In this document: positions 7,962 to 37,454 of the stretch, in pieces
Position numbering within the stretch: the stretch's first letter is position 1
Layout: the number at the start of each line of letters is the position of its first letter
Assembly: GCA_050258155.1 (NCBI GenBank)
Contig: JBLMYG010000151.1
Span: 1 to 41,428 of the forward strand
Origin: Acidithiobacillales bacterium
GTDB taxonomy: Bacteria > Acidobacteriota > Thermoanaerobaculia > UBA5066
Direction of reading: 5' to 3'
DNA: 41,428 bases
Made by a program: the position numbers and the translations under genes
The notes under the pieces: generated by a model
Told to the model about the DNA's origin: nothing
Databases searched by the model: none
Seen by the model: only the letters and a program-made list of their open reading frames with translations

Positions 7962-8075
7962 CTCTCTGCCTCTTCCCCCTCCCCCCGATACGGAAAACAG
8001 GGGAGACGGGTTCGTGCCGGGATTTCATGAATCGTACCCGAGGGAGCCCTCCGCTGGTATCTTGACCCCGGGGGA

Positions 8076-9714: not shown

Positions 9715-10491
9715 TCACTCCCGCGCGGCGCGGAAGAAGACCTCGGCGCCCGTCCTCAGAAGGGCGCCGACCGAGTGGAGGATGAGCCGGTGCCCCTTCG
9801 CCACGAGGGCCTTCGCGCGCTCGCCGGTCGAGGCGACCGTCCCGACGAGGAGCCCCGCCTCGAGGACGGTCCTGGTGATCCGGTCGATCGCCTCCTCCAC
9901 TTCGGCACGGTCCGGCCCCTCCGGGAAGCCCATCGCCATCGAGAGGTCGCGGGGACCGATGATGACTCCGTCGAGCCCCGGCACCTTCAGAATTTCCGGC
10001 AGCGACACCGCCGCCTCGACGGTCTCGATCTGGGGGAGGACGAGCGTCTCCCTGTTGGCCCGGAGCACCCACGCCGCCTGAGTCTCCCCCGCGAGAAGCC
10101 AGCGGTTCGCCCGGACGGGCGCGATGCCGCGCTGGCCGAGGGGCGGGTACTTCACTGCGGCCACGAGCCTGCGGACATCCTCGGCCGTACGGACACCCGG
10201 CAGCATCACCCCCTGCATCCCGGCGTCGAGGAACTGGAGGATCAGCTTCGGGTCGGGGCCGCGCGGACGGACGAGCGGCGCCATCCCGGCGATCTCGCAG
10301 GCGCGAACGAAGCCGTCCGCCTCCCGCGGGCCGGCGGCTCCATGCTCCGTGTCGAGAATGAAGAAGGCGAAGCCGAGGAGGCCGACGGTCTCGACGAGGC
10401 CGCCGTCCGTGTCGGGCGAGAGAAGCCCGTAAACGGGGCCGGCGGCCTCGAGGCGGGCACGAAGGGTGGGGCGCGTCACCGGAGCGGTCAC
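9715..10491 (-). CDS. HpcH/HpaI family aldolase
   Basis: 258 aa with FFILDTEHGAAG, VRPRGPD, MLPGVRTAEDV, LPQIETVEA and DGVIIGPRDLSMAMG, typical of the TIM-barrel HpcH/HpaI aldolase family. The GTG start overlaps the upstream gene stop by 4 nt. Confidence 0.8.
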   Translation of the reverse strand: MTAPVTRPTLRARLEAAGPVYGLLSPDTDGGLVETVGLLGFAFFILDTEHGAAGPREADGFVRACEIAGMAPLVRPRGPDPKLILQFLDAGMQGVMLPGVRTAEDVRRLVAAVKYPPLGQRGIAPVRANRWLLAGETQAAWVLRANRETLVLPQIETVEAAVSLPEILKVPGLDGVIIGPRDLSMAMGFPEGPDRAEVEEAIDRITRTVLEAGLLVGTVASTGERAKALVAKGHRLILHSVGALLRTGAEVFFRAARE

Positions 10492-11672
10492 GCGCGCCGT
10501 GCCTCCGGGGCTGCCCCGCCAGCCCGCCGGCGACGGACGGCCCGGGAAACGCGCTCGGCGGCGGCATCGACCTCCTCCTCCGTCGTGAAGCGGCCGAGGC
10601 CGAACCGGATCGACACCTCCGCTTCTCCGGGCGAAAGCCCGATGCCGCGAAGGACGTGGCTCGGTTCCGGCGTCGCCGAGGTGCAGGCGGACCCGGCCGA
10701 GACGGCGATCTCTCTGACGTCCATCATCAGGCCGTCGGCCCGGACGCCCGGAAAGCCGATGTTCAGGTTGCCCGCGAGCCGCTCCTCCGGGTGGCCGTTC
10801 ACGAAAGCATCCGGGATCTCCGAGAGGAGCCGTGTTTCCAGCCGGTCCCTGAGGGCGCGGACACGCGAGGTCTCCTCGGCCATCTCCGCCACGGCGATCC
10901 GCGCGGCCGTGCCGAGTCCGACGATGGCCGGGACGTTCAGCGTGCCCGAGCGGAGCCCTCTTTCGTGTCCACCGCCAAAGAGGATCGGCTCGAGCCGCGC
11001 CCGCGGGTTAAGAGCCCGGACGTAAAGGACGCCGATGCCCTTCGGCCCGCAGATCTTGTGTCCGGAGACCGAGACGAGGTCGACGCCGATGGAGTGAACG
11101 GCCATCGGCACCTTTCCGAACGCCTGCGCCGCGTCGGTGTGGAAGAGGATGCCGCGCTCCTTGCAGAGGCGCCCGATCGCCGCGATCGGGTTCAGCGTCC
11201 CGATCTCGTTGTTCGCGGCCATGACCGACACGAGGATCGTCCGCTGGGTCAGCGCGGCCTCCACGGCCGCGGCGCTCGTCATCCCCTGCCGATCCGGCGG
11301 CAGGACCGTCACCCGGTAGCCTTCCGTCTCGAGCCGTCGGCACGGGTCGAGGACGGCGCGGTGCTCGATGGCCGAGGTGACGACGTGGTCTCCCTTCGCC
11401 CGGTTCGCCCGCGCCGCCCCGAGGATCGCGAGGTTGTCCGACTCCGTCGCCCCGGAGGTGAAGACGATCTCCCGCGGCTCGGCGCCGAGGGCCTCGGCGA
11501 CCTCCTCCCGCGCGACCGTCACCGCCGCCTCGGCGCGGAGGCCGAACGCGTGCGTCCGGGAGGCCGCGTTGCCGAAGTGCTCTGTCAGGTACGGGACCAT
11601 CGCCTCGAGGACGCGCGGGTCGAGCGGCGTCGTCGCGTGGTAGTCGAGGTAGATCGGGACCTTCAGGGCCAT
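10488..11672 (-). CDS. Cysteine desulfurase (NifS/IscS class, PLP-dependent)
   Basis: IYLDYHATTPLDPRV, GATESDNLAI, PLP-lysine motif SVSGHKICGPKGIGVLYV, and active-site Cys loop SAGSACTSA. Start chosen at ATG 11672 (MALKVPIYLDY). The track ORF allows 11696 or 11723. Confidence 0.9.
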   Translation of the reverse strand: MALKVPIYLDYHATTPLDPRVLEAMVPYLTEHFGNAASRTHAFGLRAEAAVTVAREEVAEALGAEPREIVFTSGATESDNLAILGAARANRAKGDHVVTSAIEHRAVLDPCRRLETEGYRVTVLPPDRQGMTSAAAVEAALTQRTILVSVMAANNEIGTLNPIAAIGRLCKERGILFHTDAAQAFGKVPMAVHSIGVDLVSVSGHKICGPKGIGVLYVRALNPRARLEPILFGGGHERGLRSGTLNVPAIVGLGTAARIAVAEMAEETSRVRALRDRLETRLLSEIPDAFVNGHPEERLAGNLNIGFPGVRADGLMMDVREIAVSAGSACTSATPEPSHVLRGIGLSPGEAEVSIRFGLGRFTTEEEVDAAAERVSRAVRRRRAGGAAPEARRA

Positions 11673-11731
11673 CCGGCGCCGCCCCCCGGGTTCCATCGTG
11701 GCGGGAGACGGGTCAGAATTCAAGCGACGTT

Positions 11732-16092: not shown

Positions 16093-16596
16093 GTGCGCTT
16101 CACGAAAGTCGTCGGGCCGCCGGGAGGGCGCCCGCGCATCGTCGGCATCCGCCGCCTGCCGGGGCGCTACGCCGACCGGCAGAACGTCCGCCGGAGCGAG
16201 GAGCCGCCCGAGGAGCCCGAGCGGGCTCCCGCCGCGCGCCCCGAGCCCTCCGCTGTGAAGCCCGCGTCGTACTTCCTTCTCTCCCTCGTCTTCTCGGCTC
16301 TCCTCCTCGCCCTCTTCTTCGTCGGCGACCGGGGATTTCTCCAGATTCGCCGGCAGCGGACCCAGCTCCGCTCTGCGCAGGACGAAGTCGCGAAGCTCGA
16401 CGCCGAGAACCGGAAGCTGGAGGCCGAGGTCGCCGCGCTGAAAAACGACCCGCACGCCCTGGAGAAGATCGCCCGGGAGAAGCTGGGGCTGGTCCGGCCG
16501 GGCGAGGTCGTCGTCGTCCTCCCGGAGGGATGGGAACAGCGCGTGAAACCCCGGACAGCCAATCCTGGATTGGAGGGCGGCCCCTCGAAGCCCTGA
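16093..16596 (+). CDS. ftsB: Septum formation initiator FtsB/DivIC family
   Basis: Single TM SYFLLSLVFSALLLALFF, followed by coiled coil LRSAQDEVAKLDAENRKLEAEVAALKNDPHALEKIAREKLGLVRPGE. It sits immediately downstream of eno, as in E. coli. An in-frame GTG at 16255 would give a more typical 113 aa protein, so the start is uncertain. Confidence 0.7.
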   Translation: MRFTKVVGPPGGRPRIVGIRRLPGRYADRQNVRRSEEPPEEPERAPAARPEPSAVKPASYFLLSLVFSALLLALFFVGDRGFLQIRRQRTQLRSAQDEVAKLDAENRKLEAEVAALKNDPHALEKIAREKLGLVRPGEVVVVLPEGWEQRVKPRTANPGLEGGPSKP

Positions 16597-16640
16597 GGAT
16601 CCCCGGGGTCGCTGCCCTGCCTTCCTCCGCCCGCCGCCGG

Positions 16641-17102
16641 CTACGTGACGCGCGAGAGGTCCGAGAGCACCTCCGCCGCGTGCGTCGCCGGAGACACGTC
16701 CTCATAGACCTTCGCGACCTTCCCCTTCGAGTCGATCAGAAAGCTCTTCCGCCGGGCGATCCCGAAGGCCAGGTCCACGCCGTACCGGCGGATCACCTCT
16801 CCCTCCGCGTCGGCCAGAAGCGGAAAGGTCAGGCCGTTCTTCTTCGCAAATTTCGCCTGCGACCGGACGGTGTCCTTCGAGACTCCGATGACCGCCACGT
16901 CCGCCGGGAATTTCGGGCCTTCGTCACGGAAGGCGCGCGCCTCGATCGTTCACCCCGGGGTGTCGGCTTTCGGATAGAAAAAAAGGACGACCCGCTTCCC
17001 TCTGAGCCCCGAGAGCTTCAGCTTCTTTCCAGACTGGTCCTCGAGCGTGAAATCGGGAGCGTCATCGCCCGGCTTCAGGGTCGTACCCGAGAAGAAGCCC
17101 AT
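16641..17102 (-). CDS. bcp: Peroxiredoxin, Bcp/PrxQ family, with in-frame TGA (16952-16950) at the peroxidatic Cys position; candidate selenoprotein, otherwise a pseudogene
   Basis: Hand translation from ATG 17102 gives [105 protein letters not shown]...FLIDSKGKV. The frame is 462 nt (154 codons) and stays open apart from the single TGA. The track shows only the C-terminal 85 aa. Confidence 0.75.
16917..16934 (-). promoter_or_regulatory. Candidate SECIS-like hairpin downstream of the in-frame UGA
   Basis: On the mRNA: GCCUUC-CGUGAC-GAAGGC, a 6 bp stem and 6 nt loop with G and U. The stem starts 15 nt and the loop about 21 nt after the UGA. Only a short stem, and not validated by folding software. 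Confidence 0.35.
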
Positions 17103-17149
17103 TCCCGGACTCTACTCCCGCCACGGGAGAACGATCGGACCACCTTTCC

Positions 17150-17201
17150 TGTCGTTAGCACGTCAAGATGACCGGTCGGAATAGCAAGTGATCTGTCCGG
17201 T
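17150..17201. repeat. IS terminal inverted repeat (window-left end)
   Basis: TGTCGTTAGCACGTCAAGATGACCGGTCGGAATAGCAAGTGATCTGTCCGGT aligns with the reverse complement of 18562-18612 at about 40 of 52 positions with one gap (hand alignment). It contains two G(A/T)CCGGT motifs about 25 nt apart. Confidence 0.6.
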
Positions 17202-17303
17202 GGGTTAAAGAAAGGGTGTCTCGTCGTCGCGCGGTGGAAAAGTCGCATCCGCCGGCAAGCCGGGGGGCCTCAAGGACTTGCTCGGTGGATTTGGTGTGAG
17301 TCA

Positions 17304-18518
17304 TCAGGCGGCTCGAGGTGACGCGGGCCTGGGGGCTCGGACGCGCTGGTTAGGAGCCTCGAACAGCTTTCCGTCGGCGGCGTAGCGCCCCAGCAGGTGA
17401 GGCCCGTAGAAGGCGCTGAGGGTCTGATCGAGGTGGCGGCAGACCAGGACGCGGCAGCGGGCCAGCGAGAAGCGGAAGGCTTGAGGCGGAATCTGCAGGG
17501 CCAGAGAGCCCAGCGTGACGACGTTGTCGTTGGCGACGACCCGCTCGTACTGCAGGGAGAAGATCTTCTCCAGCTGCCCGCCGCGGTAGGGGACGAAGGC
17601 CGTCCCTTTCTGGGCCGGCTCGACAGAGAAGCGGCGGTTGTGCTCGGGCAGGAAGACCTCGCGCAGGAAACGATTGGCGTCCTGGATCGTCGTGATGCCC
17701 CGGAGACGAAGCTCCTGGGGAAGCCGCCCCTGCAGCGTGCCGTAAGAGCGCTCGCAGCGCCCCCGGGCCTGAGGCGAGTTGGCCGGGATCAGCTCGATGG
17801 AAAGCTGCGAGAGCGCCCGGCCCACTTGCGTCAGGTGGCCTTTCTGGGGCCGGCCCCCCGCCTTGGGGGTAAAGACGAAGTGGCTGGCCCGGTCCGAGTA
17901 GAGCGAGCAGAAGAGACCCTTCGTCTCGACCGTCTCCTTCAGGGCCGCCATGACGGTGGCCGTGCTCTCCTGCTCGGCCAGCTGGGCGTAGTAGAGCTCG
18001 CTGGTGGCGTCGTCCATCACCGACACCAGGTCCTGCTGTCCACCGTTGGGTCCCAGCCAGGCATGGGTGCTACCGTCGATGTGGATCAGCATCCCGGGCA
18101 GCGGCCGCCTCGGGCGCCTCCGGCGGTGGGCGCCTCGCCTGCGATGGCGCGCCACCAGCCCCGCCCCCTGAAGCGCGTTCTTCACCCACGTGTAGCTCAG
18201 GGGGATTCCGTGCTCCTCGTGCAGCTTCTCCACGAAGTGCCTGACATTGAAGTCGGCATACCGCTGCTGGTAGAGCCCCAGGACCTGCCGCACCGTCTCC
18301 ATCGGTACCCGCTTCGAGCTCGGCCTCCTCTGCCGCCGGTCGATCAGCCCGTCATAACCGTGCTGCTCGTAGCGCCATTTCCAGCGGCTCATCGACCGCG
18401 GCGAGATCCCCAGAATCTCCGCCGCCTGCATCCAAAGAATCTTTCCGCTGATGGCCCGCAAGATCACGTCCTGCATCTTCATGGCCCGCTCCAGAGCCGG
18501 GCTCGGGTAAAGCTCCAT
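17304..18518 (-). CDS. DDE (rve/integrase-core) transposase with N-terminal HTH, ISNCY-like
   Basis: HTH region [41 protein letters not shown]. Candidate catalytic residues lie in [18 protein letters not shown] and [11 protein letters not shown]. The real start may be ATG 18482 (MKMQDVIL). Confidence 0.9.
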
Positions 18519-18561
18519 CCCCCCACCCCCAGATCCGGAGCTTCCCCCGCCCAGCCGTCAG

Positions 18562-18612
18562 ACCGGACACTTCACTTGCTCCTACCACCGGACATTCCAC
18601 GTGCTTACCACA
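18562..18612. repeat. IS terminal inverted repeat (window-right end)
   Basis: The reverse complement reads TGTGGTAAGCACGTGGAATGTCCGGTGGTAGGAGCAAGTGAAGTGTCCGGT. It has the same TGT terminus, AGCACGT block, AGCAAGTGA block and duplicated GTCCGGT motif as the left end. Confidence 0.6.
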
Positions 18613-18629
18613 GACGCCGAAGCGGTTCC

Positions 18630-18659
18630 TTGACACGTGCCCGAGGCGTGACGTATCTT
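18630..18659 (+). promoter_or_regulatory. Candidate sigma70-type promoter for the rplM operon
   Basis: TTGACA (18630-18635), 18 nt spacer, TATCTT (18654-18659). It lies about 170 nt upstream of rplM and 18 nt outside the IS end. Confidence 0.4.
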
Positions 18660-18740
18660 CTTTCGCCTTTACGGGAGAAGGTTCGCCCGATCCCGTGGTC
18701 GTACGCTGTCGGGGCGCTGGTCTTTTCGATGCATCCGCGC

Positions 18741-18767
18741 GGGCCGCATCGGAGAGACCTGCGGCCC
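18741..18767 (+). promoter_or_regulatory. Hairpin in the long rplM 5-prime leader (possible r-protein autoregulatory structure)
   Basis: GGGCCGCA-(11 nt loop)-TGCGGCCC, an 8 bp stem with no T-tract. Function is inferred only from its position in the leader. Confidence 0.25.
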
Positions 18768-18826
18768 CGGATCATCAAGCCCGGGGGCCTCCCCCACTGA
18801 CCGCCGACCGGAGACGTCTGAATCCC

Positions 18827-19261
18827 GTGAGCCTACGCACGCCGCTCCCCAGAATCTCGGAAATCTCCCGCCGCTGGATCGTCCTCGACGCCGACGGGAA
18901 GGTCCTCGGGCGGCTCGCGACGCAGGTGGCCCGCCACCTCACCGGGAAGACGAAGCCGCATTACACGCCGTTCCTCGATACCGGAGACTTCGTCGTCGTC
19001 GTCAACGCCGAGAAGGTGGTTCTGACCGGCCGGAAGGAATCGGAGAAGATCTACCGCCGTCACACCGGATATCCGGGCGGCCTGAAGGAGATCGCCGCCG
19101 AGAAGCGCCGCGCCGAGGACCCCGAGAGCCTCATCGAAGCGGCCGTTCAGGGGATGCTCCCCAAGACGAAGCTGGGCCGGAAGATGCTGAAGAAGCTGAA
19201 GGTCTACGCCGGGCCCCACCATCCGCACGCGGCGCAGGTACCGGCGGCGGCCACGGCCTGA
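18827..19261 (+). CDS. rplM: 50S ribosomal protein L13
   Basis: [50 protein letters not shown] and [18 protein letters not shown] 18827 gives 144 aa, matching normal L13 length. The track ORF begins earlier, at 18695. Confidence 0.9.
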
Positions 19262-24881: not shown

Positions 24882-24957
24882 GCTGGCGTAGCTCAATTGG
24901 CAGAGCAGCCGATTTGTAATCGGCAGGTTGCGGGTTCAAGTCCCATCGCCAGCTCCA
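24882..24957 (+). tRNA. tRNA-Thr (anticodon TGT)
   Basis: Hand-folded cloverleaf. Acceptor GCTGGCG/CGCCAGC, D arm GCTC..GAGC, anticodon stem GCCGA/TCGGC with loop TTTGTAA, T loop TTCAAGT, encoded CCA. One C-A mismatch in the T stem. Confidence 0.85.
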
Positions 24958-25020
24958 GAGCGGCTCCGGGACGGGTCGCCCGGGACCTCCGCGGGGACGG
25001 TGGATTCGGAAACGAGGGAC

Positions 25021-25108
25021 GGGCAGATGGCCGAGTGGTTAATGGCAGCAGACTGTAAATCTGCCGCACTGACGTGCTACGGGGGTTCGAATCCCTCTCT
25101 GCCCACCA
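25021..25108 (+). tRNA. tRNA-Tyr (anticodon GTA), long variable arm
   Basis: Acceptor GGGCAGA/TCTGCCC, anticodon stem GCAGA/TCTGC with loop CTGTAAA, variable arm GCAC-TGAC-GTGC, T loop TTCGAAT, encoded CCA. Confidence 0.9.
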
Positions 25109-25127
25109 TTGCCTTCGGCAATGGTGG
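25103..25127 (+). other. Strong hairpin overlapping the 3-prime end of tRNA-Tyr
   Basis: CCACCATTGCC-TTC-GGCAATGGTGG, 11 complementary positions (or 10 bp with a 5 nt loop). The 5-prime arm includes the last acceptor-stem bases, the discriminator and the CCA of tRNA-Tyr. Confidence 0.5.
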
Positions 25128-25212
25128 TCAGGTTCTGCCGGCTGATATGTTCTCGGGGAACCCGACGCCGGTTTCCCCGAACCCCTCCGCGCCGAACAGC
25201 ACGATCACCGGC

Positions 25213-25288
25213 GCCCACGTAGCTCAGCCGGTAGAGCACGTCCTTGGTAAGGACGGGGTCAGCAGTTCAAGTCTGCTCGTGGGCTCCA
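25213..25288 (+). tRNA. tRNA-Thr (anticodon GGT)
   Basis: Acceptor GCCCACG/CGTGGGC, anticodon stem CGTCC/GGACG with loop TTGGTAA, T arm AGCAG-TTCAAGT-CTGCT, encoded CCA. Confidence 0.92.
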
Positions 25289-25296
25289 TCAGAAAG

Positions 25297-25371
25297 GCGG
25301 GAGTAACTCAGGGGTAGAGTCACAGCCTTCCAAGCTGTTGGTCGCGGGTTCGAATCCCGTCTCCCGCTCCA
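25297..25371 (+). tRNA. tRNA-Gly (anticodon TCC)
   Basis: Acceptor GCGGGAG/CTCCCGC, anticodon stem ACAGC/GCTGT with loop CTTCCAA, T arm GCGGG-TTCGAAT-CCCGT, encoded CCA. Confidence 0.92.
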
Positions 25372-25407
25372 GGCTTCCGAAGGTCGGGGAAGAAGAGGGA
25401 AAGCGGC

Positions 25408-25563
25408 ATGCCGAGAGAACTCATCAGCCTCGTCTGCAGCGCGTGCAAGAGGCGGAACTACACGACGACGAAGAACAGGAAGACCCATCAGGAAAAGCTC
25501 GAGATCTCGAAGTTCTGCGCGGCCTGCCGCAAGCACACGCCGCACAAGGAAGGGAAGGTCTGA
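25408..25563 (+). CDS. rpmG: 50S ribosomal protein L33 (zinc-ribbon, four-Cys form)
   Basis: Not in the ORF track because it is only 51 aa. Hand translation gives [51 protein letters not shown], stop TGA 25561-25563. GGGAAAG lies upstream. Its position before tRNA-Trp/secE is typical. Confidence 0.9.
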
Positions 25564-25576
25564 CGTCGCCCGTCAC

Positions 25577-25653
<77 letters not shown>

Positions 25654-28940: not shown

Positions 28941-33215
<4,275 letters not shown>

Positions 33216-33230
33216 GGAGAGACCCACCCG

Positions 33231-37454
<4,224 letters not shown>

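Follow-up and report, generated by a model that had tools for sequence, protein, structure and literature searches.

Introduction

Selenocysteine (Sec)-containing peroxiredoxins (Prx; PF00578, motif TxxU/PxxxTxxU) are an established selenoprotein family and are listed as such in a 2026 review (PMC13188914). Surveys have recorded 12 Prx selenoprotein genes and five cysteine (Cys)-to-Sec events (2006), 253 genes in the GOS survey, where Prx was among the most abundant selenoprotein families, and 91 genes in 78 genomes (2016). PrxU of Eubacterium acidaminophilum (Sohling et al. 2001; NF040737) is cited as an experimental example of a Sec-peroxiredoxin (PMC13188914, reference 83). Here we consider prx, a gene of 154 codons on the minus strand of a 41,428-nucleotide (nt) stretch of contig JBLMYG010000151.1 (the whole of which is called the window hereafter), in which a single in-frame TGA occupies the codon of the catalytic Cys of PrxQ/Bcp-type peroxiredoxins. 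Comparison with related genes indicates that prx is very probably a genuine gene for a peroxide-destroying enzyme with Sec in place of that Cys. PrxU, too, reportedly carries Sec at its peroxidatic position, according to the study of 2001.

The initial annotation of the window had proposed this replacement of Cys by Sec, remarking that Sec-peroxiredoxins are known. The literature goes further, placing TxxU Prx among the commonest bacterial selenoproteins, and the proposal itself is supported by Sec/Cys pairs among relatives, by conservation of a hairpin downstream of the TGA, by selection on both sides of the codon, by recovery of the same TGA in four further assemblies and by the use of TGA as a normal stop elsewhere in the window.

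The prx gene and its active site

The elements of the gene on which the argument depends are as follows.

16641-17102, minus strand: prx coding sequence (CDS), a PrxQ/Bcp-type peroxiredoxin with proposed Sec at residue 51; 153 residues plus TAG stop
16950-16952, minus strand: in-frame TGA, proposed selenocysteine codon at the peroxidatic position, aligned to the Cys of TPGC in PDB structures of Bcp
16950-16973, minus strand: active-site motif P44-K-A-D-T48-P-G-U51 (PxxxTxxU, as defined in PMC13188914), in codon coordinates
16749-16751, minus strand: codon of Arg118, the conserved catalytic peroxiredoxin Arg (RKSFLID motif), aligned to the Arg of VKRTTFVID (5epf) and PARITFVID (3drn)
16641-16898, minus strand: C-terminal fragment of 85 amino acids (aa) from the open reading frame (ORF) list, called by gene finders instead of the whole of prx

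On translation, the frame runs from an ATG at 17102-17100 to a TAG at 16643-16641, with the protein ending SRVT*; the TGA of codon 51 (16952-16950) is the sole stop inside it, and every remaining codon is open. The start codon and the length of 154 codons are common to the loci L001, L002, L003 and L086-L092 among the relatives described below. No Cys is encoded anywhere in the protein, and the position five residues beyond the proposed Sec (+5), at which atypical 2-Cys enzymes carry their resolving Cys, is Arg56. A resolving Cys at +5 is common, although not universal, in the PrxQ/BCP subfamily. Judged by its sequence, the product would be a 1-Cys-type (that is, "1-Sec") member. The frame, the single TGA and the translation given in the initial annotation were each re-read from the sequence and found correct; so was its remark that Cys is lacking at +5, from which it had drawn a 1-Cys-type reading that both Arg56 and the cysteine-free protein bear out. 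It had also predicted that gene callers would miss the whole gene, and the only entry for prx in the ORF list is indeed the 85-aa piece at 16641-16898, with public assemblies splitting the gene likewise.

For family searches, C was substituted for the TGA-encoded residue. The protein then matches Pfam AhpC-TSA (PF00578) with E=2.7e-38, residues 11-131 spanning profile positions 1-123 of 124, and its best NCBIfam matches are E. coli-type Bcp (117.6 bits) followed by Deinococcus PrxQ (108.9 bits), the models for ResA, Tpx, PrxU and AhpC scoring 56 bits or less. As the Bcp score lies below the equivalog-level cut-off of 140, prx is, by these profile comparisons, a member of the PrxQ/BCP subfamily and not a certified Bcp equivalog; JGI annotation of its relatives likewise reads 'peroxiredoxin Q/BCP'. 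Solved Bcp/PrxQ structures (5epf, 3drn, 5enu, 2ywn, 5iiz) align to residues 9-150 with E down to ~1e-24, and all of the top PDB matches are Bcp/PrxQ; because these matches run the full length of the sequence, the fold is taken as fixed. The TGA falls opposite the peroxidatic position (TPGC in 5epf, TPGS in 3drn), and the catalytic set of P44, T48, U51 and R118 is retained. These matches agree with what had been suggested from the sequence at the outset, namely a Bcp/PrxQ protein with TGA at the Cys codon following TPG.

Distribution of the TGA among relatives

A scan using one reference genome per species, a set to which the window's own genome does not belong, yielded 80 prx relatives (81 genes including that of the window). 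At the aligned codon 51, 14 of the relatives have TGA and 66 have TGC or TGT, so that TGA is found in 15 of 81 genes when the window is counted. Both of the closest relatives carry it (L001, Acidobacteriota, 75% identity; L002, Thermoanaerobaculia, 74%), and the third-closest has TGT (L003, Holophagales, 72%). Further carriers comprise six loci of Acidobacteriaceae (L031, L034, L040, L058, L068, L079), one Acidobacteria bacterium (L072), one uncultured bacterium (L056), and one metagenome-assembled genome (MAG) each of Gemmatimonadaceae, Latescibacteria, Dormiibacterota and Marinimicrobia. The Sec/Cys pairs that the initial annotation had advised looking for thus occur in many relatives, and precisely at this position of the alignment. 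Neighbour-joining places the Sec-type genes in at least seven distinct groups amid Cys-type genes, in agreement with the published inference of repeated Cys-to-Sec conversion in Prx.

Such a distribution bears directly upon the simplest alternative, in which a change of TGC or TGT to TGA has killed a Cys-type PrxQ whose frame merely looks intact. One base change would be enough for this, gene callers see only fragments, and in this genome an insertion sequence (IS) has disrupted the region upstream. Set against it, the TGA recurs in at least seven clades, and within the window's own clade it is found in every further member fetched (L086-L093). Seven distinct genes of that clade (the window's, L001, L002, L086, L087, L088 and L092) all have 154 codons with the TGA as sole disruption; about half of the synonymous sites vary among them, yet none has acquired a second lesion. 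Among the window gene, L001, L002 and L003, the ratio of nonsynonymous to synonymous divergence (dN/dS) is 0.10-0.38 over codons 1-50 and 0.19-0.27 over codons 52-153, with a synonymous divergence (dS) of 0.6-1.8. Low dN/dS either side of the TGA indicates that both halves have been kept as coding sequence over long divergence with the TGA present. Furthermore, a conserved and covarying hairpin accompanies the TGA and is lacking in Cys-type genes. The initial annotation had named relatives with neither Sec nor hairpin, alongside an intact paralog, as one sign of a pseudogene; the relatives show both, and a nonsense-mutated pseudogene is accordingly extremely unlikely.

Equally, the TGA could be an error of sequencing or assembly, or could reflect genome-wide reassignment of the codon (genetic code 4 or 25), ideas for which there is nothing to say beyond the mere presence of an in-frame TGA. 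Four independent assemblies besides that of the window, from as many sequencing runs, also contain its prx, all with the same TGA and with a CDS that is identical or differs by one base. TGA is the stop codon of 21 of the 31 confident window genes, among them rpoB, rplM, pyrH, frr and ribosomal protein genes; as it is their usual stop, the code is not reassigned. A window-wide scan returned prx as the only credible coding frame interrupted by TGA, a second candidate at 8025-8027 being rejected as an antisense artefact. Error and reassignment are both hardly credible.

A putative SECIS element

The published model of the bacterial selenocysteine insertion sequence (bSECIS; PMC13188914) describes an apical loop of 3-9 nt, an upper stem of 4-16 bp, a minimum free energy (MFE) of -7.5 kcal/mol or lower, a G, usually followed by G or U, within the first two loop positions, and a distance of 16-37 nt from UGA to loop. 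Two nested features lie just downstream of the UGA of prx.

16917-16934, minus strand: proposed bacterial SECIS core hairpin GCCUUC-CGUGAC-GAAGGC, with a 6-bp stem and 6-nt loop, over codons 57-62 (A-F-R-D-E-G)
16914-16937, minus strand: possible extended lower SECIS stem, CG...CG around a C/C mismatch, including the +5 codon of Arg56 (CGC); folding prediction only

The core hairpin starts 15 nt after the UGA and its loop 21 nt after, with GU at loop positions 2-3; with its 6-nt loop, 6-bp stem, 21-nt spacing and -7.8 kcal/mol it lies within every bound of the model. Against dinucleotide shuffles, the bare 18-nt hairpin has z=-3.4, and the extended hairpin (28 nt) has -11.0 kcal/mol and z=-2.0.

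It is the comparison with relatives that carries the SECIS argument. Six Sec genes from four clades (the window's, L001, L002, L020, L022, L056) share this first design at the same columns, pairing in 100% of cells, with stem arms GCCUUC/GAAGGC, GAAGCUC/GAGUUUC, GCGACUUC/GAAGUCGC and GAAUUC/GAAUUC. Of the 6 pairs, 4 have changed in a compensatory manner. The observed pairing score was reached by 0 of 500 shuffles, and slid registers all score far lower. At the same position, ~12-32 nt after the TGA, the nine other Sec genes (L029, L031, L034, L040, L052, L058, L068, L072, L079; Acidobacteriaceae-type) have a second design, GCGU-GCGG-GUU-CCGC-(G)-ACGC, that pairs in 94.6% of cells; this element (GCGUGCGG-GUU-CCGC-G-ACGC) has a bulged 3' arm, a GUU triloop ~18 nt past the UGA, and switches between G-C and A-U pairs. 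In genes of this design that have Ser (UCC) and not Cys (UGC) at +5, the bulge is displaced by one base and the stem is preserved.

Sec-type and Cys-type genes also differ as groups. Folding of positions +6 to +45 gives a mean of -11.1 kcal/mol for Sec-type vs -8.0 for Cys-type genes, and a mean z of -1.02 vs -0.03 (Mann-Whitney p=6e-5, the genes not being phylogenetically independent). Under a strict ungapped SECIS test, 6 of the 15 Sec-type genes qualify, as against 1 of the 66 Cys-type genes (p=1e-4), the first figure being a lower bound as this scorer overlooks the bulged second design and AT-rich hairpins. Among the seven Sec genes of the window's clade, synonymous diversity over codons 57-62 is 0.05, the lowest of 148 six-codon windows in a gene with a mean of 0.33; the sole variation is an exchange of CGU and CGG in the loop, by which G[G|U] is preserved. 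Rare codons are retained in the hairpin (CGU, 5% of Arg codons; GAA, 10% of Glu codons). Where the window gene reads AFRDEGPK, its Cys-type sisters read SFRDRGPK or SFRDAPK, a difference from which the peptide itself appears to have been moulded by the RNA element. The hairpin had been pointed out in the initial annotation, which was right about its position, the G and U of its loop and its SECIS-like spacing; what the relatives add is its conservation with compensatory changes.

The proposed catalytic cycle and loss of the resolving cysteine

Taken together, these comparisons make it most probable that prx (17102-16641) encodes a PrxQ/Bcp-type selenol peroxidase whose peroxidatic Sec is inserted at the UGA of codon 51. 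During translation, the hairpin at 16934-16917, 15 nt past the UGA, would act as a bacterial SECIS, recruiting SelB-GTP-Sec-tRNA(Sec) so that the UGA would be read as Sec and not as a stop. By homology, Sec51, with Thr48 and Arg118 beside it in the PxxxTxxU pocket, would attack H2O2 or an organic hydroperoxide and be converted to a selenenic acid. Since the protein has no Cys, an intramolecular selenenylsulfide could not form, and an external thiol reductant, whether thioredoxin, glutaredoxin or a low-molecular-weight thiol, would instead have to reduce the Se-OH itself, in a '1-Sec' cycle analogous to that of 1-Cys peroxiredoxins.

The absence of a resolving Cys may be part of a wider pattern. 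Of the 15 Sec-type genes, 7 have no Cys at +5, as against 3 of the 66 that are Cys-type (Fisher p=1.6e-4, without phylogenetic correction). The losses among Sec-type genes fall in at least four clades, and the window's clade has R, K, Q, S or C at this position. We suggest, tentatively and at somewhat less than even chances, that acquisition of Sec frees PrxQ enzymes from the need for a resolving Cys, and that the window enzyme is a cysteine-free single-selenol peroxidase relying on an external reductant. Should this prove general, it would be an evolutionary rule tying the chemistry of Sec (resistance to over-oxidation, fast reduction of Se-OH) to a simpler peroxiredoxin cycle. As an alternative cause, codon 56 (16935-16937) is part of the SECIS stem or adjacent to it, in which case constraint on the RNA, and not chemistry, would underlie the loss.

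Points against selenocysteine insertion, and the question of machinery

Several results weigh against insertion of Sec in this gene. The folding check suggested in the initial annotation held for the 18-nt hairpin, which stands out locally, and failed for longer stretches: the 66 nt after the UGA fold no better than shuffles (z=+1.18), and the same is true of 45 nt. When the same 15 residues were recoded synonymously using the window's own codon usage, a SECIS-compliant hairpin arose in 31% of recodings and one at least as stable in 22%; given the fixed peptide and GC-rich codon usage, the window hairpin alone is not significant. Rfam gave no match, either across the whole window at the gathering threshold or within 16850-17000 at E<=10, as is expected for elements as short and diverse as SECIS. 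Neither selA, selB, selD nor tRNA-Sec was found in the 41-kb window, and no Sec-machinery genes lie within ±10 kb of prx in relatives. Finally, a scan of 16500-17400 found no sigma-70-like promoter upstream of prx, and with an IS only 48 nt upstream the expression of this copy is uncertain.

With regard to the machinery, Pfam scans of 20 window ORFs revealed no SelA, SelB or SelD, and the tRNAs detected by ARAGORN and Rfam in the window are Thr, Tyr, Thr, Gly and Trp only; near the gene in relatives, tRNA-Met was the only one. A search for contigs reaching past the window ends produced one of 1.3 kb for the right-hand gene and none for the left-hand gene. Sec users exist among Acidobacteriota according to the literature, from which a Sec-decoding trait is plausible for this organism by analogy. 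The class-V aminotransferase at 10488-11723 (minus strand) was considered as a selenocysteine lyase and rejected, since the SclA model requires 525 bits and its score was 112. Its product is an IscS/NifS-like cysteine desulfurase (524 bits vs the IscS cut-off of 548), and the gene belongs to a block conserved with relatives, thyX-orf93-iscS-HpcH-rSAM-TM2, with no specific tie to selenium metabolism.

That no Sec-machinery genes are seen in the window would also suit read-through by a near-cognate tRNA (Cys or Trp) or some other recoding, giving low-level full-length protein in a cell whose Sec machinery is absent or lost, and one public annotation (P0007) does have Trp at the site. However, with Trp as its peroxidatic residue the enzyme would have no catalytic activity, and the 'W' of P0007 is a plain TGA in the DNA (L087). 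The hairpin fits the SelB-type bSECIS model with its synonymous sites constrained, and Sec users are known in the phylum. Read-through of this kind is therefore very unlikely, and insertion of Sec by way of the hairpin is the preferred reading.

The upstream insertion sequence and genomic context

One mobile element adjoins the gene.

17151-18612, minus strand: ISNCY-family insertion sequence, not part of the selenoprotein; transposase at 17304-18518, inverted repeats at 17168-17201 and 18562-18595

The transposase scores 357 bits against a cut-off of 250, and the inverted repeats are of 34 nt and imperfect. Judged from relatives and from L084, a contig of another sequencing run with an IS-free allele of prx, the junction of IS and prx falls at 17150|17151, so that 48 nt separate it from the ATG; the outer boundary is placed approximately, at 18612. 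Contigs assembled from short reads of the IS-bearing allele stop after 27-29 nt of the IS, which is what a multi-copy repeat should cause, and L083 ends approximately at the junction.

It follows that prx might belong to a genuine selenoprotein family and still be silent or decaying in this copy, the ISNCY insertion 48 nt upstream having split it from its promoter. The position of the junction favours this, as do the upstream region of L084 (the IS-free allele) and of relatives, which differs and includes a divergent tRNA-Met, and the failure of the scan of 16500-17400 to find a sigma-70-like promoter. Yet the CDS is identical in IS-bearing and IS-free alleles, so that any silencing must be recent; the transposase lies on the same strand, making read-through transcription possible; and the scan covers one promoter type only. 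We regard a silent or decaying copy as unlikely.

In relatives, the divergent tRNA-Met(CAT) lies ~90-170 nt upstream of prx (ARAGORN: L001 2831-2907, L002 2844-2920, L003 175-251), and the sequence before prx in L086, L088 and L092 likewise contains its reverse complement. No tRNA-Met is present at 18613-18860 of the window, where the sequence past the IS runs into rplM-rpsI-rpsB-tsf-pyrH-frr. Two origins are suggested for this prx-IS-rplM arrangement: a rearrangement mediated by the IS, or a chimeric join of two loci at the repeat during assembly. Further along are a tRNA cluster, Thr-Tyr-Thr-Gly-Trp (24882-25653), and then rpoB-rpoC (28941-37454). The tRNA cluster, rpoB-rpoC and the rplM/rpsI/rpsB/tsf/pyrH/frr block mark the window as core chromosome, of 69% GC and Acidobacteriota-like.

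Annotation and significance

Public protein data hold many fragments of 85 aa and 101 aa, with 72-99% identity, that start just past the position of the TGA (records P0037-P0048 and P0056-P0120; loci L081-L093). One of these, P0040, is identical to the window's 85-aa fragment and in public assemblies adjoins a separate 50-aa N-terminal ORF. In each of L086-L093 the TGA is present, preceded by a called ORF of 50 aa and followed by 102 codons, and the synteny prx-ftsB-eno-thyX-iscS-HpcH-rSAM is shared with the window. In gene calls from JGI, ENA and Logan fetched as loci, the clade is split into ORFs of 50 aa and 85 or 101 aa, and 85-aa fragments are also found in NCBI records; a single JGI record (P0007, L087) is full-length and renders the TGA as Trp. 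With the clade split in this manner, counts of antioxidant capacity and of selenium dependence come out too low for Acidobacteriota-like bacteria of soil and sediment.

The main value of the locus thus lies in annotation; it also extends a known selenoprotein family by a '1-Sec' member that is free of cysteine. As a selenogene, prx would signal that decoding of Sec is very probably a trait of its host, and the relatives provide a comparative data set on how SECIS elements shape coding sequence, with two hairpin designs at one site and measurable synonymous constraint.

Comparison with known systems

Cys-type Bcp/PrxQ proteins (E. coli Bcp, NF006960; Deinococcus PrxQ, NF053650; PDB 5epf, 3drn, 5iiz) resemble the product of prx in aligning over its full length, in their P, T and R residues and in their size of ~155 aa. 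They differ from it in having Cys at the position of its Sec, and in the resolving Cys found at +5 in 63 of 66 Cys-type relatives, where the window has Arg. The window gene was considered as an ortholog of PrxU and rejected, its protein scoring 49.7 bits against a model cut-off of 270 (profile of 233 positions); it belongs to another Prx subfamily. Prx-SUH (NF045827) and the Prx-like UxxC thiol:disulfide oxidoreductases are likewise thioredoxin-fold selenoproteins of the wider Prx superfamily (PMC13188914), but their motif is CxxU or UxxC and not TxxU, and the window protein reaches 34 bits against the Prx-SUH cut-off of 298.

As regards the RNA, the element shares with the fdhF-type SECIS of E. 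coli and the bSECIS consensus an in-ORF stem-loop just 3' of the UGA with a small apical loop that bears G and then U or G and that lies 16-37 nt from the UGA. It has no sequence similarity to the fdhF-type element, and within the prx family two hairpin designs occupy one position.

In the searchable literature, nothing was found that singles out a Bcp-type selenoprotein or this Acidobacteriota-like clade. The nearest described counterpart is the 'Prx' family of Zhang & Gladyshev, which has the same Pfam domain, Sec at the peroxidatic PxxxTxxU and a SECIS directly downstream within the ORF, and in which Cys-type homologs far outnumber Sec-type, as they do among the relatives described here. 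The family definitions of the surveys would include the window gene, which reveals no new mechanism. What distinguishes it is a matter of finer resolution: the surveys give no breakdown by Prx subfamily, whereas the window gene is of the PrxQ/Bcp subtype, comes from an Acidobacteriota-like genome and encodes a protein with no Cys at all.

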